A DNA stretch of 64,000 nucleotides from Eledone cirrhosa (taxonomy: Eukaryota). Of this stretch, positions 12,768-60,107 are shown piece after piece (the first letter of the stretch is position 1; every line of letters starts with the position of its first letter). The position numbers were made by a program, and so were the translations under genes. The notes beneath the pieces are model-generated. The model saw only the letters and a list, made by a program, of their open reading frames with translations. It ran no database searches and was not told the DNA's origin. The DNA lies in contig OZ024743.1 of assembly GCA_964016885.1 (NCBI GenBank), forward strand, positions 252,960,001 through 253,024,000. Reading direction: 5' to 3'.

Positions 12768-14849
12768 ATGGCTACGAAAAAGAAATTTCATACGTCACTC
12801 CCACTCATTCCGTCTTCTTCTTCCTCAATCATCACTACAGCAGAGAGAAGATTGTCTCTCTCCCTCCCTTCTTTAAATGTGTCTCTCTCCCTCCCTTCTC
12901 TTTCGCAAGTGACGAAAGAAAAGAAAAGTCTCGTGCAAAGCGTGCAAGGTTTCTCCACGACGACGACGACAGCGACGAAACAGGTGTGCGGGAAATACGA
13001 AAACCCAGTTCATTCGTCTGACGTCAGGAATAATAGCAGTAGCAGCCGTAATAACAACAGCAACAGTGACAATGAAAACAACAGTAGCAGCCGCAACAGC
13101 ATCACCAGCAGCATAAACAACAACAGCATTAGCAGCAGCAACACCAACAACAACCACAGCAACAGCGGCGGAGGCAGTAGTCGTAGTACCTGCAGCAACA
13201 ACAAAAGTACCAGCAGCTCTGACGACAACAACAACAGCAGAGAAAAACCAATCTCATTTGCAGGTATTGCGAAAAACTTGGAAACAATCCTCATAACAAA
13301 TGAGGAATTAGAGGAAGCGAAGAAGATGGTGACAAAGAACGGACACCGAGCAATCTGCAAGGCAGCGGGAAAATTTTTCGAAACCCAAGAGCACTGTACG
13401 GTCACGTACCGTACAGTAAGTACAAAATCCCATAGGGTGGAAAGAGCCACAGAGGCCCAAATACAAAAAGCCTTGGGGTCTGTGTGGCAGCGGAAAACGC
13501 ACATCACCCGAGGCAAAAAATATGCCACCATAGACGTACTTTTTGCCACACCCCAGGAGGCAAAGGCCCAATCAGTAGTGACCCTAAGGAGCGAGGAAAT
13601 GGTGTTGGTGCCCTCCTACTGCGGGCAAAAAATTGTGAGGGTCAAACTGACCCACGTCCCCCCCGGAATGACCCCTTCTTGGCTGGCCGCGTCTGTCCTC
13701 GTCGGAATCGAGGACAAAACAACTGTACTGCAAGTACAGAAAAAAGTAAGAGAAGATTGGGTCGGCTCCTCCATTGAGATGCTAATCCAAACCAACCAGG
13801 AGTGCATCGAAGCTATCCCGGATGTGATAGACTTCGATAACGGCACTCAACTGCCCATAAGTGTTGAGGGCAAACGCCCGAAATGCTTTCGCTGTGGATC
13901 GAAGACTCACCTCAGGGCCTTCTGCAACGAGAAGACCCTGAGAAAGGAGAAAACCCCCCTCCTTCCGAATCCGGCTCCACGGCTACCAGCAACAGGACAA
14001 GCGGCAACCAGGAACGATAGGTCCGTGGCACCCATACCCACGCCACGGAATTCAAAAACAGCAGCAGCAGTGGAAATATTAACAACAACAACAGCAATAC
14101 CAAATGCAGCTGCAACAGAGACTCCAGTGCAAACATCACCAACAACAACAACTGAAAGAGTGGAGCTGGTACCCCTCCCCGACCTCACAGAATCAGACAT
14201 GGAGTGTGAGGTGGGAGAGGGATGGCAAAAGGTCGCAAGAAGGCACAAACGCAGAAGCAGCGCATCGTCGCCTTTGAAAAGGGAGGAAAGAAATGAGAAA
14301 AGGGTAAAGTCTACTGCAAAGAGACCCACAGCAGCAACACCACCAACACCATCACCACCCACACTAGCACCACCATCACCACCGCCAACAACACCTTCAA
14401 CACCACCACCACAAGCACCAACATCGCAAACACAACAACAAAACACACACACCCAGCAACAACGACAAGAAAATAGCAGAACCACACCCCACCCCCAGAA
14501 AAACAAATGCACGGCAATAAATACACACAACAAGAAACTAATGACTTACATAATTGAACACACAGACATTTCACAACAGGACTACATAATACCAGCACCA
14601 ATCAAAACGCCAACTAACATAAGACTGCTAAAAATAGCACAGAAACAATACACAAATATTAAAACGAAATTCCCCAACGCAGTTGGTGATTTCAGGGACC
14701 TAGGAGGAACCATCAATCGAAGAGTATACTCAGACATTCTCTTAGAAGAGCCGACGACCAGCCGAAGGGACGATTCAACGGTCCCTTCACCAGACGATCA
14801 AGTGAAAAGGGATGTAAAAACCATCCCTCCTCTACCAAAAGTACGGTAA
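12768..14849 (+). CDS. Tx1 ORF1p (693 aa): N/S low-complexity N-terminus, central folded region, CCHC zinc knuckle, P/T/Q-rich tail; intact
   Basis: ATG in AAC-ATG-G context at 12768; VEGKRPKCFRCGSKTHLRAFC (CX2CX4HX4C); homologous to ORF1 of B and C. Confidence 0.9.
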   Translation: MATKKKFHTSLPLIPSSSSSIITTAERRLSLSLPSLNVSLSLPSLSQVTKEKKSLVQSVQGFSTTTTTATKQVCGKYENPVHSSDVRNNSSSSRNNNSNSDNENNSSSRNSITSSINNNSISSSNTNNNHSNSGGGSSRSTCSNNKSTSSSDDNNNSREKPISFAGIAKNLETILITNEELEEAKKMVTKNGHRAICKAAGKFFETQEHCTVTYRTVSTKSHRVERATEAQIQKALGSVWQRKTHITRGKKYATIDVLFATPQEAKAQSVVTLRSEEMVLVPSYCGQKIVRVKLTHVPPGMTPSWLAASVLVGIEDKTTVLQVQKKVREDWVGSSIEMLIQTNQECIEAIPDVIDFDNGTQLPISVEGKRPKCFRCGSKTHLRAFCNEKTLRKEKTPLLPNPAPRLPATGQAATRNDRSVAPIPTPRNSKTAAAVEILTTTTAIPNAAATETPVQTSPTTTTERVELVPLPDLTESDMECEVGEGWQKVARRHKRRSSASSPLKREERNEKRVKSTAKRPTAATPPTPSPPTLAPPSPPPTTPSTPPPQAPTSQTQQQNTHTQQQRQENSRTTPHPQKNKCTAINTHNKKLMTYIIEHTDISQQDYIIPAPIKTPTNIRLLKIAQKQYTNIKTKFPNAVGDFRDLGGTINRRVYSDILLEEPTTSRRDDSTVPSPDDQVKRDVKTIPPLPKVR

Positions 14850-14884
14850 GTGGTCTTTCCCATCTTTTCCACTCTATTTTAAAC

Positions 14885-17800
14885 ATGACCTCACTCAGAA
14901 TAGGCAGCATAAATGCGCGTGGCTTGGGATCATCATGGAAGCAGGGTCACCTGCTCAACGACCTCAGGTCACTAAACATAGATGTAGTGGCCATCAGCGA
15001 GACCAGAATCTCCGAAGCACGGGCCTTCGCACCGATCTTCGGCGGCTACGATGTGTACGCATCTCCCAGCCGTCCTGGATCCGGTGGAGGAGTTGCTGTG
15101 CTTTTTCGGAGAGGTTTGGATCTCGCCATACGGGCCATCTTCCTGGACCCAGAGGGTAAGCTGGTGGTGCTGGACGTGACCAGCGGAGACGGGCAAGCTT
15201 TCAGGCTAGTGGCCGTCTATGCCCCGACAGGAGCAGGGCGGCCTGATTTCTTCCGGCGTCTGGAGACCTTTCTTGGAACGTCCCGCTCTTTAGTGTTAGT
15301 GGGCGACTGGAACGGGATCTTAGATGCACGCTGGGACTGTGTGGGATTAGCGGATAGGGGTGGAGGGTGCAAGAGCCTCACCAACCTGCTCAGGCGTTTT
15401 GAACTGTCTGACAGGTACCGATTGGATTTCCCGAATGTGCCAATGTGGACTTGGACAAACCGCATAGGGTCATCCAGATCATATCTAGATAGAGTATTTT
15501 GTAGGGAAATAGATAGGTCTAGCATAGGCTGTCCACAATTCAAGATAGTCAGCTACACGGACCACAAATTCGTGATCTGTGTGCTTGACTTAGATAGGCT
15601 TCATAGACGAGGACCCGGCTACTGGAAGCTAAACGCGTCCTTACCAGCGCGCAAGGACTACAGAGACCGGATTAGCGAACTAGTTAAGCGGGCGTTGACG
15701 GGGGCCATCGTCAACAACAAGTGGTGGTTTGCTCTGAAAAGAGCGATTAGAATAGAATCGATTAGGTTTAGTAAGGCTTTAGCAATAGAGAAAAATAGAG
15801 CAGAGGGAGAACTAGTTAGAAAATTAGACGAGGCGCTTAGCAAAGGCATTGCGACCGACGTGCTTGCGGCGAAATTGGCCCTTGACCAATTCTTCAATGC
15901 AAAGCACGAAGGCTGCGTTGTCAGAGCTAGGGTGCGTGCTCTCAGACACAAGGGGACGAAAGCCGTTCAATGGGCCCGAGTGGCGGAGGCGCGTCGTGGC
16001 AACAAAGCCACGATCCGGTCTTTGGTGGACCACGACGGGCACATGCTACTCGATCCCGGGCAAATGTGTGAAGCTTTTCAGGGACACTTCGCTCAGCTGT
16101 TCGGGGGCAGCGGGGGGGCCGGGTAGAGGGATGGACTTTAGTGTCTACCTCGACGGACTGCCGCGGCTCTCGGCCACTGAGGCGAAGTGTTGCGAAAAGC
16201 CGATAACAACCGCTGAAGTAAGGGAGGCAATGACTGGCTGCACAAGGGGTAAATCGCCTGGTTTGGATGGTCTGCCCTATGAACTTTACGTACAGATGCC
16301 AGACTTGTTCGGAGGCCTCTTGGCGGACGTCTACTGCAACTGGCAACAGAACGGGAGAATTCCCAGTTCTGTGAGCCGAGGAGCGGTGGCACTGCTGAGA
16401 AAGGATCCGAACAAGGGGGATAACATAGAACATTTCCGGCCCATAACTCTGCTAAACACAGAGTTTAAGATTTTGGCCAAGGTGCTAGCAAAGAGGTTGG
16501 CGCTTGTCGTTGGTGGTCTGGTGGGAGAGGCGCAGACATGCGCTATTCCCGACAGATCCATCCACGACAACCTCCACCTCATGCGATACATCGTAGAGAG
16601 GGTAGCTAGGGAACCTGGCACGGGTGGGTCCTTGATCAATTTAGATCAGTCGAAAGCTTTCGATAGGGTCGACCATCGTTACCTAGCGGCAGTCCTGAGG
16701 GCGGCTGGCTTTGGGCCCGTCTTCAGAGGCTGGATCGCTGCCATGCACAGCGACATCTGCTCTGTGGTGAGAGTGAACGGTCACCTGTCGGAACCGTTCA
16801 ACATCATGCGCTCGGTCCGCCAATGATGTCCCCTCTCGTCCCTCTTGTACGTATTGACTCTCGAGCCATTACTGCACAAACTGGAGACGTTGAGGGGAGT
16901 CCCGCGCGAACTAGGATGCGGAAGATCCGTGTCAGCATATGCGGACGATGTCACCGTAGTGGTGTCGAACGCCAAACACATCGAGGCGATCGGCACTACA
17001 CTAAGAGAATACGAAGCGGTGACAGGAGCAATGATCAACCAGGAAAAGTCAGTGGGCCTGCAGCTCGGCACCTGGAGAGGCAGGTCCATGCCGTCCAACA
17101 GCGTCGTCGGACGCTGGACGGACGGACCGGTTAAATTGCTAGGGGTCTGGTTCGGTCCGGACCTCCAGACGGACAAAAACTGGGACGAGGTGACGAGCAG
17201 GGTGGCTTCTCTCACCCAGAAATGGGCGGAGAGGAAGCTATCCCTGAAAGGTCGAGCGGAGGTGGCTAACGCGTACATCGCGTCTGTCATCTGCTACCGC
17301 CTGACCGTCGTACCTTGTCCTAAGCCTCGCCTGACTGCGCTGGAGCGTTTGCTCTTTCGCTTTTTGTGGAAGGGACGTGCTCCGATGGTCAGGCGGTCCA
17401 TCTGTTGTCAACACCCGCTACGTGGAGGGCTGGGAATGCCGTGGCTGATGATGCGCAGGCACGCGCTCAGGCTACGACATCTCCACCTCTTCCTCGACGG
17501 TGATCAGGTGTGGTGGCCGTTTGCTAGGCGCGTATTTCCCCAGCTCGTTTCCTTGACGGAGCTGCAGTCCTGGGTCAAGCGAAGACCGAGAGGGAGCGCC
17601 TGGAGACTGGAATGTCTTCAGGCGCTCACAGCCCTCGACCAATCGGGCAATGTGATCGGTGGAAACTCCACCTCGGCGTTCTATAGAGGATTAGTGGAGG
17701 GGAAGAGCGACGACGTACTTGGGGAAACTCTAGGCGTCGACGAAAATCAACTAGCCAATCTCTTCGGAAGAACTTTCGGGCCGGGGCCTATGGACAACCT

Positions 17801-18305
17801 CCAGAAATCTCTGGCCTGGCAGTGCTACCGAGGAGCCTTGCCAGTTCGGGATAAACTCTACAGGCATGGAGGTGCCGTCAGCCGGGCATGTCCGAGATGC
17901 ACGCAGGGCGACGAAACCGTCCTGCACGCACTCGTCCAGTGTCCGAAAATTGCTGACTTGTGGGTTTATGTCGAACACCTGCTGTCGCGTTTAGGACGGA
18001 TCCGGCTATCATCTGAGTCCATCGTGAGGATTGCCCCGCCCTCCTCCTTTAGCCGGGAAGGGCAGGCAGTTTTTATCTGTCTGGTGGCCATGGCGAAAGA
18101 GATAGTATGGTGGACACGTTTGAAAGGGCTGAAGACGAGCACTTACCTCTTCGGTGATGCTCTGATTGACTTTTTCAAATTTCATTTGAAAAGGAAAATC
18201 AGAGTAGAGAGGGAAGTGTTCTCTTCCCAGCATTTTGTTGAAAGATGGGTGAGAGAAGCAAGAATGGCCCGAGTGAATGGGCCTACTCTGAGTATATATC
18301 TGTAA
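14885..18305 (+). pseudogene. Tx1 ORF2p (APE endonuclease, RT, C-terminal zinc finger) with one frameshift (~16110-16125, G run) and one TGA at 16824-16826
   Basis: IGSINARG, ISETR, GDWN, SYLDR, YTDH; KSPGLDG, FRPITLLN, LDQSKAFDRVDH, VRQ*CPLS, YADD; CPRC...HALVQC. Confidence 0.92.
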
Positions 18306-18797
18306 ATTAAAGGTGGAAAACTGGGAGAGGGCACTTGCCTTGGTGGTCAGGGTCATTGTGGCTTTTTACTGGGCTTTCTCCACAAATGTCCCTCCGAAGT
18401 CTCCCCCCCCTATTGGGGAATTTTTCATTGTTATTTTCATTGTTATTTTTGTTACATCCTCTGTTTTTGTTTTTTACACGCAGAAATGCCCATTTGTACC
18501 GTCCTGCATTGTCCTGCACTGTCCTTAATGTCTACTTTATGTAAACCCTTGTGGTTAATAAAGAAATCATTATTATTATTACTATTATTATTATCGGTCT
18601 GTTCGACACTTTTTGCTCGCTCCCAGTAAGACGCACTTATTTGCCTGCCACAATTATTTGTTGTTAAATATTTCTAGTTGTGTACGGGATATAATCCCCT
18701 AGACTTTGCCCCGTGACGGGGAATGTATTATATGTGGGCCTTTTGGCCCAAATATTTGAACATTTTACTTTTAAAATTATTTGAAAAAAAAAGAAAC

Positions 18798-20759
18798 ATG
18801 GCTGAGCCACGCTCCCCAGCAATATGTCCTATGTCCGCTGTCGAGTGACAACGGCGGCAAAGTTGAGAGGAGGGTTAGTGAAACTCATACAACAGACAAC
18901 ACTGAGAACACTAATTTTGAAAAAATTACCACACCAACTACAACAATAACAGTGTCAACCAAAATACAGACAACAGAAAAACAATGACAACAAAGGCAAC
19001 AACGATATTAACACCACTAACAAGACAATAAACAACGACAACACCAACAGCAACAATACAAATTGCACGGAAAGCAACAACAACGGTGGCAGCAAAAACA
19101 CAACCAACTACAACAGTGATAACAGCAACAACACCAACAACACCGTTTGTAGCAGTAACAACAGCAACAGCACTAACAACAAGACCAGTAATGGCAGCAA
19201 TAATGGTGCCGCTGAAAAAGGGGCCATTTCTTTCGCATGTGTGGCCAGAAATATAGAGACAGTGCTAGTTACGGAGGAAAGAGATGGCAGTCGCAAGAGC
19301 CATGGTGTCGAGAAACGACAATAGAGTTTCCCTGAAACCTCCACCCGATTTCTTCAAAGACCAGCAGCTGCGCACGGTGACTTACCGCACCATAAGCAAA
19401 ATGTCACATCAGGTGGAGAGAGCCACGGAGGCTCAAATCCAAAAGGCCTTGGGGTGCGTCTGGGCGCGAAAACCCACATCACCCGAGGCAAAATGTACGC
19501 CACAGTAGACGTACTTCTCGCCATCCCCCAAGAGGCGAAGTCTCACTCTTTGGAAACCATAGAGAGTGAGGAGATAGTCTTGGTGCCCTCCTACTACGGG
19601 CAGAACAATTTGAGGGTCAAAGTGTCCCAGGTCCCGCCAGACGTGCCCATACCGTGGCTGTCCGCGTCTGTACTGGCTGGAATCGAGGAGAAGACCACCA
19701 TACTGCAAATACAGATAATGGGCAGAGAGAACTGGTCAGGAATAGGCATGCAAATGCTAATACATACTGACCAGGAGTGCATCGAGGCCATCCCAGACAT
19801 CATACATCTCGAAGAAGGGCTCCAACTCCCTATAAGCGTGGGAGGAAGGCGCCCAAAGTGCAATCACTGTGAGCAGAAGGGTCACCTCAGGGCGTTCTGC
19901 CCGCAGAAGACAGCCAAGAAGACCCCCCCCCCACCTTCCGATGCCTGTTACGCTACTACCAAGAACAGGGCAGGAAACAGAAGCAGAAGACCCTTCCATA
20001 GTGAGTAGGAGGACAACGTCCGTGGCACCGATAGCAAGGCCATGGACAACTAAAGCAGCGGCAGCAGTGGCGGCAACACCAACAGTCGCAGTAGCCACAC
20101 CGGCGGCAAAATCGCTGGAGCGGGCTCCACTACCACCACCAACAGAGCTCATACCCCTCCCAGACGCCACGGAATCTGACATGGAGTATGAGGCGGGAGG
20201 GAAGTGGCAAACGGTCTGCCTAAAAAAAAACAAGAGGAAAAACCCCTTAGCTTCACCCTCCAAAAGCGAATGTAGACAAAGAGGGGTAAATGCTGCAAGC
20301 AGACTTGCAGCAACACCATCACCATCACAACCACAAGCATCACCACCAACAACATCCACGCCACCACCACCAAAAACACCAACATCGCAAACAACAAAAC
20401 ACACACACACCCAAAACCAACAACAAGAAAACAGCAACAAAATCACCCCTACCTGCCAAAAGTACACAGCCATAAACATGGCAAATAAAGAACTCATACA
20501 ACATATAAAGCAGCACACAGACATCACAGAAAAAAACTACTACACCCCACCAACACCAAGAACTCTCCCGACAAACATAAGCATCATTGAAATCAAAATA
20601 GAACAGTACAAACTTTTAAAACAAAAATTCAACAACGCAGTTGGAGACACCAGAGGGTCGGTTACCAAGAGGATATACACCGACATCCCCTTGGAAACAC
20701 CCATGTCCAGCCAAAGGGACGGTTCTACTATCCCTTCACCACACGATCAAGGTAAGTGA
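18798..20759 (+). pseudogene. Tx1 family-B ORF1 (frameshifted)
   Basis: Pieces 19284-19508, 19454-20008 (RPKCNHCEQKGHLRAFC) and 19869-20759 align to ORF1 of A. Confidence 0.85.
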
Positions 20760-20791
20760 TCCTTTCTCACTTGCCCCGTTTCTTATCCAAC

Positions 20792-23700
20792 ATGGCCGTA
20801 CATAGAATAGGCAGTATAAATGTACGTGGCCCGGGTCATCTTGTAAGCAGGGTTACCTTCTCAACGACCTGAGGACACTAAACATAGATGTGTTGGCTAT
20901 CAGCGAGACCAGAATCTCCGAAGCACGAGCCTTTGCACCGATCTTCGGTGGCTACCATGTATACGCATCTCCCAGCCGTCCAGGGTCGGGGGGAGGGGTT
21001 GCCGTGCTTTTTCGGATAGGCTTGGATCTCGCCATACGGGCCATCTTCCAGGACCCAGAAGGTAAGTCGGTGGTGCTGGACTTGACCGGCAGCGAAGGCA
21101 ATGCTTTCAGGCTAGTAGCCGTCTACGCCTCAACAGGGGCAGGACGGCCAGATTTCTTCAGACGTCTAGAAACCTTTCTTGCAACGTCCCGCTCTTTAGT
21201 GTTAGTGGGCAACTGGAACGGTATCTTAGATGGACGCTGGGATTATGTGGGGCTAGTAGACAGGGCAGGAGGGTGTAAAAGCCCCAACAACCTGCTCAGA
21301 CGTTTTGAACTGTCTGACAGGTATAGACTGGATTATCCGAATGTGCCAATGTGGACATGGGCAAACCGCATCACGTCATCCAGATCGTATTTAGATAAGG
21401 TATTCAGTAGGGAAACAGATAAGGCTAGTGTAGGTTGTCGACAATTTAAAGTAGTCGACTACATGGACCACAAATTTGTGATCTGTGAAGTTGACTTAGA
21501 TAGACTCCATAGGCAAGGGCCCGGCTACTGGAAGCTGAACGCGTCGTTCCCGGCTCGCAAAGCTTACAGAGACCGGATTAGCGAATTAGTTAAGCGTGCC
21601 TTGACGAATGCGGTCCTCAACAACAGGTGGTGGTTTACCCTGAAAAGGGCTATTAGAGTAGAATCGATAAGGTTTAGCAAAGGAGTATGATAGAGGAAAA
21701 TAGAGTAGAGGGAGAGTTATTTAGAAAGCTAGAAGAGGCGTTTAGGACAGGCATCGCAATCGACGTGCTTGGCACTCGACCAATTCTTCAACGCAAAGCA
21801 TGAAGGCTGCGTTGTCAGAGCTAGAGTGCGTGCTCTAAACACGAGGGGACAAAAGACGTTCAATGGACCCGGGTGGTGGAGGCGTGACGTGGCAACAAGC
21901 CCACAATTCGGTCTTTGCCTAATCAAAACGGGTGCATGTTGCTCGAACACGAGCAGATGTGTGCGGATTTTCAACAGCACTTGGCTCAATTATTCGGGAG
22001 CGGCGGCGGGCCGGATCGGAATATGGACTTCGGTGCATACTTCGATGGACTGCCGTGGCTCTCGCCGACCGCAGCGCAGTGCTGCGAAAAGCCGATAACA
22101 GCAGGTTAAATACGGGAAGCGATGTCTGACTGCACGAGGGGTAAATCGCCAGGTATTGATGGTCTGCCCTACGACCTTTATGCGTATATGCCAGACTTGT
22201 TCGGTGACCTCTTGACAGATGTCTACTGCAACTGGCAGCAGAACGGGAGCATTCCCAGATTTGTGAGCCGGGTAGCGGTGGCGCGGCTGAGAAAAAAACC
22301 GAACAAGGGGGACATTATTGACAAATTCAGGCCCATAACACTGCTAAACGCAGAGTTTAAGATTTTGGCCAAGGTGTTAGCAAAGAGATTGGCGCTTGTC
22401 GTCGATGATCTGGTAGGAGAGGCGCAGACATGCACCATTACGGACAGATCCATCCACGACAACCTCCATGTCATGCTATACATCATAGAGAGGGTGGTTA
22501 AGGAAGATGGCACGGCAGTGGCGCTTATCAAATTGGATCAATCTAAAGCATTTCATAGGGTCGACCATCGGTATCTGGCTGCAGTTTTCGAGGCGGCCGG
22601 CTTCGGGCCCGTTTTTAGGGGCGGGATCGCTGCGATGCACAGCGACATCTGCTCAGTTGTGAGGTTGAATGGTCACCTGTCACAGCCTTTCAGCATCATG
22701 CGCTCGGTCTGCCAGGGATGCCCCCTCTCATCACTCTTGTACGTGCTGGTCTTCGAGCCGTTACTGCACAAATAGGAGGCGATGACGGGGGTACCACGCG
22801 AACTGGGATGCGGGAGATCCGTGTCAGCTTACGCCGACGACGTCACCGTGGTGGTGTTGAGCACCAAACACGCCCAGATGCTCGGCACCGCTGTCAAGGA
22901 ATACGAAGCGATGACAGGAGCAAAGATAAACCAGGAAAAGTCGGTGGGCTTCCAGCTCGGCACTTGGAGAGGCAAGTCCATACCGTCCGACAGAATCTTG
23001 GGGCGCTGGACGGAAGGACCGGTTAAATTGCTCGGGCTCTGGTTCGGTCCGGAACTCCAGATGGAGAAAAACTGGAGCGAAGTGACGAGCAGATTGGTCT
23101 CTCTCACCCAGAAATAGGCCGAGAGGAGGATGTCTCTGAAATCTCGAGCGGAGATGGCGAATGCGTACATAGCGCCCATAGGGATAGCGCTTGGAAGCTG
23201 GAATGTCTCCAAGTGCTCACCGTCCTCTACCAGCTGGGCACTAGTATCGGTGGAACATTGACCTCGTCGTTCTATAAGAGCTAGTGGAGGGAAAGAGCGA
23301 CGGGGTTCTCGTGGAGCCCCTGGGCGTCGAAGACGATCAGCTGTTCGCTCTCTTCAAGAGAAGTTTCAGACCGGAGCCTAAGAACAACTTCCAGAAATCC
23401 TTGGCCTGGCAGTGCTACCGGGGAGCGTTGCCGGTTCGGGATAAGCTCTACAGGCATGGAGGTGTTATCAGCCGAGCCTGTCGGAGATGCGCGCAGAGCG
23501 ACGAAACCTTCCTGCACGCACTGGTTCAGTGCCCGAGGATTGCTGACTTGTGGAGCTATGTTGAACAGCTGCTGTCGCGTGTAGGACGGATCCGGTTATC
23601 GAGTGAATCCATTGTGCAGATATACCCGACATCCTCCTTTAAAGAGCAGGAAGGGCAGGCAGTCTTCATCTGCCTGGTGGCCGTGCCGAAAGAGATTGTG

Positions 23701-23897
23701 TAGTGGACAAGGTTGAAAGGGTTGAAGACGGACACTTTCTTCTCCGGCCAATCCCTGATTAACTTTTTCAAGTTTCACTTGAAGAGGAAAAATCAGGGTG
23801 GAGGGGCAAATGCTGTCTTCTAGTAATTGTTGAAAGGTGGGTGAATGTAGCGAGGCTGATCCGAGTGAACGGGCCCGCTCTGAGTATGCGCCTGTAG
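20792..23897 (+). pseudogene. Tx1 family-B ORF2 (multiple stops, frameshifts, deletion)
   Basis: EN 20890-21690, RT 22122-23117 (QGCPLS, YADD), zinc finger 23284-23703. Confidence 0.88.
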
Positions 23898-24385
23898 ACT
23901 GAGGAGTGGGAAAACAGAGAGAGGGCGCTTGCTCTGGTAGTCTGGTTGGCTGTGGCCTTTTTGTGTGGTTTTTGCCACGAGTGATCCTCGGAGGTTTCCC
24001 CCTATTTGGGGAATTTTTGTTGTTTGAATTTTTTTGATTTTTAGCCCAATTTTATTATCACCTGTTTACACGACCAAAACCCACTTTTGTATCGTCCTGT
24101 ACTGTTCTGTGCCGTCTCTAATGTTTTTCTTCGTGTTAGCCCTTGTAAGAAACCATTATTATTATTATTATTATTGACGAAAGTGGATGTACGTTTTTTG
24201 AAGCTCCGTGAGTAAGCAATTTTTTGAGGATTAATTGTGGAGAATTGTTTATTTTTTTGTACCGCTGAAGCATTATAAGACATTCATTTGTATCCTGTGA
24301 AGGAATAACTCATAATATTTGGGCCTTTTGGCCCAAATATTTGAACTTTATTTTGGAAAAATAATAATTCTTTTCTCAAAAAAAC

Positions 24386-26288
24386 ATGGCGGTGCCACGC
24401 CCCCTAGAGGCGGGTCTGCTGTCGTGCAACGGTGACTTGAGCGTTGAGAGGAGAGGTGGGGCGAGGAGCGCCACGAGCACGAGTGTGAGCAGCGACAGTG
24501 CCAGCACCAACGGGCCGAGCGGCGCGGAAGGTGGTAACAACACCAACACCAACAAGCCGAACAGCGCAGAAGGTGGTAATAGCGAGAGCACCAACAAAAC
24601 GAACAGCACAGAGAGTAATAGTAGCGACAGCAGCAGCACCAACAAGGCCAACAGCACAGAGGGTAACCACGACACAGGGGAGAACAACAACAGCAATAGC
24701 AGCAGCAACACCAACAAGAACAACAACAGTGACAACACCAACAAGAACACCTTCGCTGCTGTGGCAGCGGCTAAAAGGAGACCATGCTACAGCATCGACT
24801 TAACCAACAGAGAGTAAAAGTTGGCCCAGGCCTGGAAAATCATAAATCAAGAGCAGACCTGGGCAAACTTAACTGTCCCGGCAGAAGCCATTGAGGCAGT
24901 GGAAAAAAGAACGGTGCATTTCAGATGCATCTCAGTAGAGACAAAGAGGGCAGCGATAATCGCCCAAGCTGATATAGAAGCCGCACTGAAATACATCAGA
25001 GAGGACACAGACTTCATAGAGAGGGGCAGGCAATACGGCACCGTTTCGGTGCTGTTCAAGTCTGAAGCCCTCGCTGTGAAGCATTCAATGACCCCTTGCA
25101 AAACCAGCAAGGTCATAATGTACCCCTCCCACATGGGAAAACGAATAGCACGTGTGCGCATTCCCAGGATTCCACCAGGACTTGATATGTGGTGGATCCT
25201 GGGTTGCGTAATCGTGGAAGGAACGGATACAGTCCCGGTAGAGGCAACGAGAATTGCCAGGGACGACTGGTCCGGGGTTGATCTGGAGATACTGCTCCAA
25301 ATCAGACCCGAAAACGTAAAAGCAATCCCGGACCACATCCGCCTCCAAAACGGGAGGGTGTTGCATATAATGACTGAGGGCAAAAGGCCGCATTGTTTCC
25401 TTTGTGGGGAAATGACACACTTGCGAGCCTTCTGCCCTCAACTGCCGAAAAGCGCAAGGGGTCGAAAGATTCCACTGCTGGCGACGCCGGGACAAGGACC
25501 ACCAGCAACACCGTCAACAATGGAACCACCAAAATTGCACACCCAGGGGGGAAACGAGGAAAGCTCTCCCATTCCCCCTCCCCCCCAAAATACACACACG
25601 AACAAGAACATAAACACTCACTCAGACACAAACACGCTCACAGCCACAGACCCCTCATCCTCCAGCAGTGAAGATGAGGGAAAACCAAAGTCCCCCAAAA
25701 TACAAAAAACAAAACACAAAAAAAAAAGAAATCCACAAAGCACAAACACCCCCACAAAAAAATACACACACCACCCACACAAACATTTTCCCCACAGCAT
25801 CACCAACACAACCACCAAAATCCCCCAAACGCAAACAAGCTAAACAGACACAAGAACAAATAGACACACAAACATCAGAAACTACAGACACCCCACCCAC
25901 AACAAACGCAGACACAATAGAAACAACACTAACAAAGCTATCACCACCACAATCACACGAACAAATAAAACCCGAGCAACAAAACATTAAAAACTTCGTG
26001 CTTGCCAGAAGGGCCAACAAGGAATTGATGGCCCATGTAGCACGAAGCACAAACATCGAAAAAGAGGGGGAAACATTTGAAGCGAGCACATTTCGCGTAC
26101 CAGATAATTTGCTTCTGATGCGAATGTCGCTCGCTTCATACAAAGAAATTCGAAAGAGCTTTCCTCGGGATGTGGGAACCCCGTACGTAAAACCCACTTC
26201 AAGACTATTAAAGGGGTTCCCAAAAGAAACCCCACAAACCATGGAGGTCGAACCACCCGACCTTCACAAGACCTCGGAAGGTAAGTAA
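24386..26288 (+). pseudogene. Tx1 family-C ORF1 (in-frame TAA at 24815-24817; frameshift in A/C runs ~25680-25840)
   Basis: TEGKRPHCFLCGEMTHLRAFC knuckle; same domain order as A. Confidence 0.85.
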
Positions 26289-26317
26289 ACCTTTCCTCTC
26301 CCATTCATCCTGCCAGC

Positions 26318-29300
26318 ATGGCCATAAGAGTAGGAAGTTAAAATGTTCGTGGCCTGGGGTCGCCCTGGAAGCAAGGTCACTTGCTCAACGACCTCAGGTC
26401 ACTAGGAATGGATGTAATTGCCGTCAGCGAGACCAGAATTTCCGACACACGCGCACTGGCGCCGATTTTCGACGATTATCAGATCTTTGCATCTGTTAGT
26501 CGGCCGGGAATGGGAGGTGGAGTGGCTGTGCTGTTTAGGAAATGTCTGGATCTCGAGGTAAGGTCAATCTTCCGGGATCCTGACGGAAAGTTGGTGGTCC
26601 TGGACGTGAGCAATAGCGAAGGTGGTGCCTTTAGACTGGTGGCCGTCTACGCCCCTACTGGGGCCGGTCGGCCGGACTTCTTTAGGCGCCTGGAAAACTT
26701 TCTGCTTACGTCTCGCCCTTTACTGTTAATAGGGGATTGGAATGGCATCTTAGAAGCACGCTGGGATTGTGTGGGAGTATCTGATAGGAGCGGGGGGTGC
26801 AAAAGCCTCAAGTACCTGATCAGCCAGTTTCAACTGTCTGACAGGTACCGACTATATTTCCCTAATGCACCAGTATGGACCTGGACCAATCGCATAGGGT
26901 CATCTAGATCGTACATAGATAGGATTTTCATTAGGAAAAGAGATAGAAATAGTGTAGGATGTCCATATTTTAAAACGGTTGCCTATTCAGATCACAAGCT
27001 TGTGATCTGTATGGTCGACCTAGATAAGACACGTAGGTTAGGACCTAGCTACTGGAAGCTAAACATGTCGTTTCCGGCACGTAAAGCTTACAGGGACCGG
27101 GTCAACAACTTAGTTAAGCAAAAGTTGACAGGGGGGGTTGTCAACAACAGGTGGTGGGGGGCTCTCAAAAGAGTGATTAGAGCAACCTCAATAGGATTTA
27201 GCAAAGAAGTAGCAATAGAGAAAAATAGAAAGGAGGCAGGGCTGATAGCTAAGTTAGACGAGGCTATTTGTAGTGGCATTGCAACAGACGTGCTAGCGGC
27301 GAGAATGGCACTAGACCATTTCTTCAATGCGAAACACGAAGGTTGCATTGTCAGAGCTAAGGCGCGTGCTCTGAGGAACGAGGGAACCAAAGCTGCCCGA
27401 TGGGCTCGCTTTGCAGAGACGCAGCGTGGAAATAAAACCACAATTCGGTCTTTGACGGATCGAGATGGACACGAACTGAGCGATTCCAAGCAGATGTGTG
27501 AGGCCTTTCGCCAGCACTTTGCTCGATTGTTCGGGAGGATGGGTGAGTCGGAGACGGCGGCGGACTTCAGTCCCTACCTCGACGGCTTGCCACGCCTTTC
27601 GACGGCCGACGCTGAGCGCTGCGAAGAGCCGATAACATCAGTCGAAATTCAGGACGCCCTTGTCGGCTGCTCGAGTCACAAGTCACCCGGTTTGGATGGT
27701 CTGCCCTACGAGCTTTACGTAAATATGCCAGACTTGTTCTCCGATCTCCTCGAAGCGCTCTACTGCAACTGGCAGCAGAACGGGAGCATTCCCAGTTCTG
27801 TGAGCCGTGGCGTAGTGACGCTGATAAGGAAAGACGAGAACAAGAGGGACACACTAGATAATTTCAGGCCCATAACCCTGCTCAACACAGAGTTTAAGAT
27901 TTTGGCCAAGGTGTTAGCGAAAAGGTTGGCACTTGTCGTCAAAGATTTGGTTGGGGAGGCGCAAACTTGCGCAATCCCGACCAGGTACATACACGACAAC
28001 CTCCACCTCATGCGATACATCATAGAGAGGGTTGGGTGCAAACCTGGCTTCGGTGGGGCTCTGATCAATTTAGATCAATCGAAAGCATTCGATAGGGTCG
28101 ACCATCGGTACTTGGAGGCTGTCCTCGAGGCGGCTGGCTTCGGCCCCGTCTTCAGAAGCTGGATCGCTGCAATGTACAGCGGCATCTGCTCGGTGGTCAA
28201 AGTTAATGGCCACCTCTCGGAACCGTTTCAGATCTCTCGATCGGCCCGTCAAGGGTGCCCTCTCTCCTCACTTCTGTACGTATTGACTCTTGAGCCTCTA
28301 CTGCGGAAGCTGGAGTTGTTGCAGGGCATCCCGCTCGAACCGGGACGTAGAAAGGCTGCGTCCGCTTATGCGGACGACATCACCGTGATGGTGTCGGACA
28401 TCTCGGAAATCGAGGTGATCCGCACCCATTTGGAGGAATATGAAAGGTTGACGGGAGCAAAACTTAACCCGGAAAAGTCGGTGGGCTTGCAGCTCGGCAC
28501 CTGGAGAGGCAAGTCCATGCCGTCCAACAGCGTCGTTGGGTGCTGGACAGACGGACCGGTAAAGTTGCTCGGGGTTTGGTTCGGACCAGACCTCCAGGTG
28601 GATAAGAATTGGGACGAGGTGACGAGCAGGATAGCCAACCTCACCCAGAAATGGGCTGAGAGAAAGCTATCACTGAAAGGGCGGGCGGAGGTGGCGAACG
28701 CGTACATCGCGTCCGTCATTTACTACCGCCTGACCGTCGTGCCTTGCCCCCGTCCACGCCTCGCCAATTTGGAACGGCTCCTTTTCAAATTTTTGTGGAG
28801 GGGACGGGTCCCGTTGGTGAGGCGGTCCATCTGCTGCCAGCACCCTCTTCGTGGAGGGCTGGGCATGCCGTGGCTAATGATGCGCAGACATGCGCTGAGG
28901 CTGCGACATCTCCAGATATTTTGCCTAAACGGTGAACAGGTGTGGTCGCCGTTTGTTAGACGGGCCTTTCCGCAGCTCATCTCTTTGACTGAGCTGCAGT
29001 CCTGGGTCAAGAAGAGACCGAGACTGGGCGACTGGCATCTGGAATGTTGCCAGGCGCTCACTGCACTCTGCAAGGTGGGCAATGCGGTCAGTGGAACTTC
29101 CACTCAAGATTTCTATAGAGGATTAGTGGAGGGCAAGTACGATGACGTACTAGGAGAGGCTCTAGGCGTCAACGAAGTAGAACTGACCAGTATGTTCCGG
29201 AGGACTTTCGAGCCGGGGACGATGGATAACTTCCAGAAATCCCTCGCTTGGCAGTGCTACCGGGGGGCGCTGCCGGTTCGGGATAAACTCTACAGGCACG

Positions 29301-29737
29301 GAAGTGCTGTCAGACAAACCTGCCCGAGATGCGCGCAGAGCGACGAAACCGTTCTGCACGCACTCGTCCAGTGTCCGTGCATTGCTGACTTGTGGGGTTA
29401 TGTCGAACAGCTATTGTCGCGTGTAGAACGGATCCGGCTATCGTCCGAGTCCATAGTGAAGATTGACCCGCCGCCTTCTTTTGGTCAGGAAGGGCAGGCA
29501 ATTTTCCCCTGCCTGGTGGCAGTAGCGAAAGAGGTTGCATGGTGGACCAGGTTGAAAGGACTGAAGACAGACACTTTTCTCTTCGGCCAATCCCTCATCA
29601 ACTTCTTCAAGTTTCACTTGGAAAGGAAGGTGAGGGTGGAGAGAGAAGTGCTGCCCCCCAGTACATTTACTGAAAGGTGGGTGAATGTGGCGAGAATGGC
29701 CCGCGTGAGTGGGCCTACTCTGATCATGCGCCTGTAG
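26318..29737 (+). CDS. Tx1 family-C ORF2p (APE-RT-zinc finger), 1139 codons, open except TAA at codon 8 (26339-26341)
   Basis: ATG GCC ATA AGA GTA GGA AGT TAA AAT GTT CGT GGC, then in-frame 1118-aa ORF with all EN and RT motifs (GDWN, YSDH, RQGCPLS, YADD). Confidence 0.9.
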
Positions 29738-30005
29738 GCTGGTGAATTCGAGAAGGAGAGGGGTGCCCTTCTCGGGTGCCCTAGGAGCGTCGGGTGGCTC
29801 AGGACTGGTGGAGTGCTTGAGTCAACCCTGGGTGGTGATCCCTCTTATTGGGGAACTTTCATTGTTGTATTTTTATTGTTATTTTGTTTTTTGTTATTTA
29901 TACTTACTCGATCTCTATGTAAACCCCCACTGTCCCTGTCTATTGTGTTGTCCCCTATATGTCGGCCCTTGTGGCCAATAAATGAAATCATTATTATTAT
30001 TATTG

Positions 30006-30191
30006 GCGGTGAATTGGCAGTATTGGTAGAGAGTCGGACGCCATGGTTTGACGCATAGAGTTACGGCCCTTGCCATTCTGAGTTCAAATCCCGCCGAGGT
30101 TAACTTTGCCTTTCATCCTTACGGGGTCGATAAAATAAAGTACCAGTAATGCACTGGGTAATTGCTGGCCTTGTGCCTAAAGTAGAAACAA
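30006..30191 (+). mobile_element. SINE S1 copy
   Basis: Matches 9911-10098. Confidence 0.85.
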
Positions 30192-51357: not shown

Positions 51358-59836
<8,479 letters not shown>

Positions 59837-60107
59837 AAAAATATAGAGCAACCGAACGATGGTAAATATTTGTACGATGGGAAAACGCCTCGGTAACTGA
59901 AATATATATAAATGTATGAAAATCAGCAAACCCTCCATCTCAATTCTACTTTTGAAAAGCACAAGAACTGCGCAAAACCGGTAAAGGAACCAAATAAATA
60001 TTCTTAAAAAGTCACTAGTTACATTTTCGAATTCATCTTTTTCCCCATGATTTCATTCATGTACATCTCGTTTTTTTTTCATTTTGTAAAACGAACCTCA
60101 TTTTCTA

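Follow-up and report, generated by a model that had tools for sequence, protein, structure and literature searches.

Long interspersed nuclear elements (LINEs) are thought to make both of their proteins from one unspliced bicistronic RNA. For human L1, excerpts of two reports describe conserved splice sites, a mostly unspliced RNA, cis preference and the spliced products SpIREs and SpORF2; the main donor lies in the 5' untranslated region (5'UTR), and splicing, which damages the promoter or open reading frame 1 (ORF1) or else gives an ORF2-only RNA, was judged harmful (PMC5860796; PMC2896524). The commonest human SpIRE amounts to about 1.8% of full-length L1, and spliced copies to about 2% overall (PMC5860796, in excerpt). 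The Arabidopsis Ty1/Copia element EVD makes an shGAG messenger RNA (mRNA) with a donor that also suppresses premature termination (PMC5580714, in excerpt). In Drosophila copia, most of the enzyme region is spliced out, which gives a capsid-protein message beside the full-length RNA (bioRxiv 10.1101/2023.12.20.572708, in excerpt). Here we analyzed a 64,000-nucleotide stretch of Eledone cirrhosa DNA (contig OZ024743.1 of assembly GCA_964016885.1, positions 252,960,001 to 253,024,000 of the forward strand; hereafter the window), in which three Tx1-like LINEs, of families A, B and C, each carry a splice-donor-like motif at the end of ORF1.

An earlier reading of this window, the original prediction, took the motif for the donor of an intron of 50-60 nucleotides whose removal would take out the ORF1 stop and join ORF1 and ORF2 in one frame. 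We found that the feature is real and that the mechanism first proposed for it is wrong. In our judgment there is an even chance that the conserved U1-type donor opens an alternative intron of about 3.46 kb, which would span all of ORF2 and leave an ORF1-only mRNA.

The donor-like motif at the end of ORF1

All three sites stand on the plus strand where the original prediction had placed them, with first intron bases at 14846 (A), 20752 (B) and 26281 (C). The A site, ACG|GTAAGT (14843..14851, cut after 14845), falls in phase 2 of an ORF1 whose frame, stop to stop, occupies 12717..14849, contains a CCHC knuckle and ends in the codons CGG TAA. The B and C sites both read AAG|GTAAGT and fall in phase 1, the former at 20749..20757 (cut after 20751; ORF1 stop TGA at 20757-20759) and the latter at 26278..26286 (cut after 26280; ORF1 stop TAA at 26286-26288). 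A pyrimidine tract follows each site, and the ORF2 ATG comes 37-40 nucleotides on, at 14885, 20792 and 26318, respectively.

Conservation was assessed in a wider sample of 30 loci and 60 longer stretches, drawn from the first 100 places listed and from later searches, which is neither random nor complete. An AG|GTRAGT-like site was present in 16 of 17 subfamily representatives, so that the motif extends to further families; the exception, J, has a weak CAG|GTAAT and is, with I, one of two unreliable rows of our tree. Columns -2 to +6 were 82-100% invariant among the 17 (-1 to +2 being fixed by construction, as sites were located by the pattern GGTRR[GT]), as against 35-71% for -10 to -3 and +7 to +11, and +12 to +16 were pyrimidine in nearly all. 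Only 94 of 297 four-fold degenerate ORF2 sites were invariant across five families; four-fold ORF2 identity between deep lineages was 0.51-0.57, and their ORF1 ends could not be aligned. The donor falls in ORF1 phase 2 in A, D, E, G, H and J, in phase 1 in B and C, and in phase 0 in F. The F ORF1 continues for 12 codons past the donor, which shows that motif and stop codon are distinct. As had been claimed, it is the nucleotide sequence that is conserved, independently of ORF1 phase and within the limits of the U1 pairing window. When about 300 GT sites per element were ranked for pairing with this genome's own U1, the site came first in 10 of 13 representatives, second in two and sixth in one. 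Of 30 C loci, 29 read GTAAGT, and U1 pairing is preserved in the commonest variant, which has G at +4. Four of 13 Tx1 loci from one set of 18 loci were without the donor (L202, L204, L207 and L210), all of them old or damaged. Cumulatively, these results confirm that the motif is real and conserved beyond chance.

Named ORF1 homologues were found in Octopus sinensis, O. bimaculoides and Argonauta hians, while part of the homologue searches returned no match. These are protein sequences only; their C-termini read DQGK, or PEGKS in Argonauta hians, and such ends are probably the peptide footprint of a phase-1 donor. In the O. sinensis gene model XP_036364761.1, a GK stands a few residues before the end of ORF1. 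Nine of 36 metagenome loci at 22-45% identity had a readable ORF2 start, none of them with such a donor, and they are too distant to inform; none was found in the viral contigs searched. An old copy at a single locus (L242 / L207) is missing three features at once: donor, TAG stop and 3'UTR AG. A donor-sequestering hairpin was also considered and rejected, since it did not exceed shuffled sequences in any of 14 cases.

A distant relative, P0002, has 41.7% ORF2 identity and a four-fold identity to A, C and E of 0.26-0.30, compared with 0.26 by chance, and is thus saturated at silent sites. Every one of its 56 distinct copies carries AAG|GTAAGT 13 nucleotides before the ORF2 ATG; the ORF1 stop stands just 5' of the cut, and no pyrimidine tract follows the donor. 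P0002 lies in tandem arrays on contigs L263-L301, filed as a bacterial metagenome-assembled genome (MAG). About 18 contigs of this record, titled uncultured Arenicella MAG, are tandem arrays of an animal-type LINE; they are evidently animal DNA and likely represent host contamination of a GTDB genome.

The pattern of conservation bears on two explanations other than splicing. The motif might be a DNA-level element that resembles a donor (a factor site, or a promoter inside the element whose pyrimidine initiator would start an ORF2 message), or inherited sequence without a splice role. The human L1 donor is kept because it lies inside a RUNX3 site (PMC5860796, in excerpt), and the near-universal pyrimidines at +12 to +16 would suit an initiator. 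However, the conserved columns are exactly the U1 window, the variant with G at +4 still pairs with U1, silent sites are saturated relative to P0002, and P0002 is without the tract, which together make this explanation improbable. We consider it still more improbable that the spacer tethers ribosomes by pairing with the 3' end of 18S ribosomal RNA (rRNA) for ORF2 re-initiation. Over 9-12 base pairs, the A, A' and E spacers do pair with the 3' terminus of the 18S rRNA of this genome, at an energy near -16 kcal/mol (p<=0.004 relative to shuffled sequences), and window B reaches -16.7; contiguous pairs number 12 in A (14849-14860) and B (20755-20766) and 9 in E. Nine of 13 families, by contrast, were not above shuffles, with 4 of 13 at p<0.05 (18S 3' end only), conservation stops at +6, short of the pairing stretch, and a P0002 junction without a pyrimidine tract is again hard to accommodate. 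The 18S rRNA match itself (L061, L062) is about 2,870 nucleotides long, about 1 kb longer than the Rfam model.

The proposed fusion mini-intron

The in-frame AGs listed as acceptors in the original prediction are present (A 14898, B 20810, C 26333), and the first AG is indeed out of frame in B and C, as it is in F. Two further AGs of C had been missed: an in-frame GAG, which would give a 50-nucleotide intron, and the first AG, a CAG at 26316 (36 nucleotides, out of frame). In-frame AGs at 50-62 nucleotides in A, B, C, G and H favor a fusion, as does family F, which is without an ORF2 ATG though intact copies exist. The in-frame AGs come from Arg and Ile/Val-Gly codons of the endonuclease's first strand. 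Other families do not fit: intact F has no in-frame AG before 92 nucleotides, and D, D' and E would require introns of 39-42 nucleotides. The distant relative terminates ORF1 before the donor, which makes fusion impossible there.

Genomic copies lacking the predicted intron were sought as well. The family A count, which took in only copies with the exact 16-nucleotide exon side, comprised 2,208 exact unspliced copies of the junction genome-wide and 29 deviating copies. All of the latter were read, 13 with +2 other than T and 16 with T at +2 and a base other than A at +3, and they consisted of 26 substitutions or 1-nucleotide deletions, two small deletions and one microhomology deletion without an AG. 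A 435-nucleotide deletion in A copy L156 starts at the donor, with ACG microhomology and no AG. Thus none of 2,237 A copies was spliced, second exons beginning N-T-A not having been searched (upper 95% bound 0.13%, compared with about 1.8% for the commonest human SpIRE). As a spliced RNA encoding ORF2 protein (ORF2p) should be copied in cis, the lack of spliced copies counts against fusion. In the C lineage, all 14 copies with +2 other than T were point changes or small indels rather than intron-less copies, in a search that did not cover exons with T at +2 and left the denominator uncounted. The fusion reading is largely refuted, and we now find it barely credible.

A conserved CTCAG|G located 108-130 nucleotides downstream was tried as an acceptor and rejected; its AG is present in 11 of 11 but weak, it is in frame only in phase-2 families, and no A copy was spliced there. 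The family F junction (L132, L133, L141, L245 and L246) has ATA in place of the ORF2 ATG in the same Kozak-like context, and F copies with an open ORF1 (613 codons) and an open ORF2 (1,141 codons) exist. This suggests that ORF2 initiation in F is AUG-independent. Such initiation of ORF2 occurs in human L1.

Candidate acceptors and a possible ORF1-only message

The two alternatives that the original prediction had offered, a U1 site and an ORF1-only mRNA, are the two readings that survive. Candidate acceptors for the latter coincide with the ORF2 stop. In B this stop reads CCTGTAG (within 23891..23902, AG 23896-23897) and is followed by a TGA at 23900-23902 in the phase of ORF1; in C it again reads CCTGTAG (within 29731..29745, AG 29736-29737), with a TGA in the phase of ORF1 at 29743-29745. 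From donor to ORF2-stop AG, the predicted C intron measures 3,457 nucleotides. YTRTAG is the ORF2 stop sequence in 9 of the 11 representatives aligned, and by median acceptor score (a heuristic built on approximate frequencies) it shares the top place among aligned AG columns; among about 250 AGs, its AG ranks 1-2 in 5 of 12 representatives and in the top 10 in 8 of 12.

When the donor is joined to the ORF2-stop AG, translation in the phase of ORF1 would meet a stop within three codons in 11 of 14 subfamilies, compared with 6 of 28 other-phase slots (Fisher p=0.0007, from hand-entered counts that represent only 2-3 independent lineages). A and A' were left out of this tally because their ORF2 ends in TAA, and the phases of three damaged representatives were taken from relatives. 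The restored stop is in phase 1 in the B and C lineages, where TAA, TAG and TGA are all used, and in phase 0 in F. In E, G, H and D151 it is shifted by one base relative to B and C, to phase 2, as their donors are, and the predicted splice would leave the ORF1 protein (ORF1p) of these four unchanged. A tandem-stop explanation predicts a downstream stop in the frame of ORF2 rather than that of ORF1. In the 3' ends of family M (L310, L315, L322 and L324), which is E/H-like, an extra T after the ORF2 TAG puts the next stop in phase 1, from which a phase-1 donor is predicted for M; the M pieces examined are all 5'-truncated.

Family A ORF2 (14885..18305, with its own ATG and broken in the window copy) ends in TAA and therefore has no AG at its stop. 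The predicted partner of the A donor is an acceptor-like site in the 3'UTR (18443..18483), where a T tract is followed by CACGCAG with its AG at 18482-18483. On the same heuristic, this AG (window 18483) is the best-scoring one of the element in A and A', and a splice there would add 19 residues to ORF1. CACGCAG is found in 9 of 9 TAA-type A-like 3' ends with a readable 3'UTR and also in J; B 3' ends are without it and have no AG at the corresponding 3'UTR position.

U1 binding, splicing and their purpose we infer from these sites. Part of the RNA would be spliced from the ORF1-stop donor either to the ORF2 stop or to a 3'UTR acceptor, and this fraction would supply extra ORF1p alongside the unspliced RNA. 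The latter, judging from the cis preference of human L1, would be both the ORF2p message and the template for new copies. Spliced copies would not accumulate, because the unspliced RNA would serve as template under cis preference. Given the 50-nucleotide rule for junction-dependent decay, a donor at the ORF1 stop may also keep the spliced message clear of that pathway.

Several observations weigh against ORF1-only splicing. Set against a synonymous-codon null, the ORF2-stop acceptor comes out higher in just one of 12 representatives (F, p=0.014), and in 4 of 12 its score is negative. The join provides no nearby own-phase stop for D147, D' and J, and the phase tally rests, by the tree, on the 2-3 independent lineages mentioned above. 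No spliced copy was found among the 2,237 A copies, the predicted A acceptor included, which is expected under strict cis preference, nor among the 14 C-lineage copies with a changed +2 base. The P0002 ORF2 stop makes a weak acceptor, ranking 41-51 among about 260, and is lost in 5 of 47 copies, and P0002 has a second donor for which the model has no need. This second site, GTRAGT, stands 14 nucleotides after the usual ORF2 stop in 47 of 47 distinct 3' ends and shows the GT(A/G)AGT variation typical of donors; with its pyrimidine tract, it was never found spliced in the 47 copies. P0002 also has a pyrimidine tract and a TAG about 250 nucleotides into the 3'UTR in 8 of 8 representatives. In one P0002 subfamily, an extended ORF2 has a stop that overlaps the second donor, which mirrors the ORF1 end of family A.

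The A donor is crossed in unspliced form by assembled contigs of runs X3, X4 and X6 (library type unrecorded). None of 15 joints out of 326 lies at 14845, nor does the single joint on a 501-nucleotide stretch (6 of 20 loose ends). Contigs drop rare forms, and these joints therefore count neither for nor against splicing.

The main rival is that U1 docks at the ORF1 end independently of splicing and the site is rarely spliced, so that poly(A) signals of the A-rich ORF1 would not trigger early cleavage of the nascent RNA, or its stability or export would be aided. A donor much better conserved than any acceptor, the lack of spliced copies and the second P0002 donor with its donor-typical variation all argue for docking, as does an AATAAA or ATTAAA within 500 nucleotides upstream of the donor in 9 of 11 representatives. 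The HIV-1 donor occludes an upstream poly(A) site. In EVD, premature termination is suppressed by U1 (PMC5580714, in excerpt). However, these hexamers are about as frequent as expected from 37% A and have no U-rich context, those of P0002 lie at least 790 nucleotides from the donor, and docking leaves both the phase-matched stops after the ORF2 TAG and the A 3'UTR acceptor unexplained. We regard docking without splicing as rather unlikely. It need not exclude ORF1-only splicing, as EVD does both.

Returning to ORF1-only splicing, we tentatively extend it to an old animal LINE lineage that may keep ORF2 in a regulated, stop-to-stop spliceosomal intron. The spliceosome would set the ratio of ORF1p to ORF2p, donor and acceptor would co-evolve in phase, and cis preference would prevent intron loss over thousands of retrotranspositions; we hold this with a little less than even confidence.

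The elements and their relation to known systems

The three LINEs lie head to tail, each in the (ATT)n tail of the preceding one. The family A element (12536..18594, plus strand) is full length with an (ATT)n tail, has a Pfam endonuclease and is 98.7% identical to an intact genomic copy over 6,074 nucleotides. The family C element, also on the plus strand, spans 24156..30004 with an (ATT)n tail, and its window copy has a premature TAA in ORF2 (26339-26341) that is absent from other C copies; both the B and the C copies in the window are damaged. Across the families, ORF2 carries APE endonuclease (PF03372), reverse transcriptase (RT; PF00078) and zf-RVT (PF13966) domains in Pfam, a separate upstream ORF1 has the knuckle CxxCxxxxHxxxxC in six ORF1s, and the 3' ends are (ATT)n or (ATCT)n tails following AATAAA. 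We take the elements to be Tx1-like on the strength of the original prediction and of their architecture. The ORF2-start pattern occurs at 12,507 places in the 3.0-Gb genome, compared with 284 for a reversed control. Both family A and family C are represented by at least 150 near-identical copies, and ORF2 is open in many.

Tail and target type tracks clade, with (ATT)n in A, B and C and (ATCT)n in D, F and G (window 18560-18600, 24150-24175 and 30000-30015; L132, L147 and L232). Elements insert into one another's tails, which builds mixed arrays, and family E sits among copies of a tandem repeat of about 70 nucleotides. A hairpin of the type GGGCC TTTT GGCCC stands just 5' of the ORF1 ATG (window ~18735-18760 and ~24318-24345), and a similar stem of other sequence occurs in the 5'UTRs of A, D', E, F and G. 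About 8 kb of simple repeat with less than 10% G+C fills window positions 52000-60000.

We found no ORF1-end donor in Tx1 elements described in the literature searched, which excluded most subscription papers, Repbase notes and supplements. In the portion of an Octopus vulgaris repeat paper reached by term (PMC13282606), L1-Tx1 appears once, in a table, and splicing never. The genome-wide spliced-copy count, the phase-0 family F, the phase-matched stops and the second donor are added by the present analysis. If ORF1-only splicing or U1 docking is true, a LINE lineage whose U1 site has persisted beyond silent-site saturation either independently reached the Copia solution of a spliced structural-protein message or relies on U1 for protection of its RNA. 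Young copies with strong donors number in the thousands, and these could also be spliced into transcripts of the host.

The elements resemble Tx1 of the L1-Tx1 group in their CCHC ORF1, in an ORF2 with APE endonuclease, RT and zf-RVT, in their microsatellite tails and in their tandem arrays. They differ from human L1 in having the donor at the ORF1 stop and in the lack of any spliced copy among those searched. As two-ORF LINEs without the LTR (long terminal repeat) gag-pol layout, they do not belong to Ty1/Copia, although they may work alike. They share with EVD, as far as its excerpted description goes, a conserved donor of U1 type close to where the structural gene ends, which in EVD leads to a structural-protein-only mRNA while unspliced RNA dominates. 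EVD, however, is described there as an LTR element with one gag-pol ORF, a short intron and premature poly(A), whereas here a two-ORF non-LTR element, known from sequence alone, has a predicted intron over all of ORF2. As in the excerpted account of Drosophila copia, the enzyme region would be removed in a structural-protein message, which here is predicted; copia, by contrast, is an LTR element with a demonstrated isoform, and the predicted sites here coincide with two stop codons.

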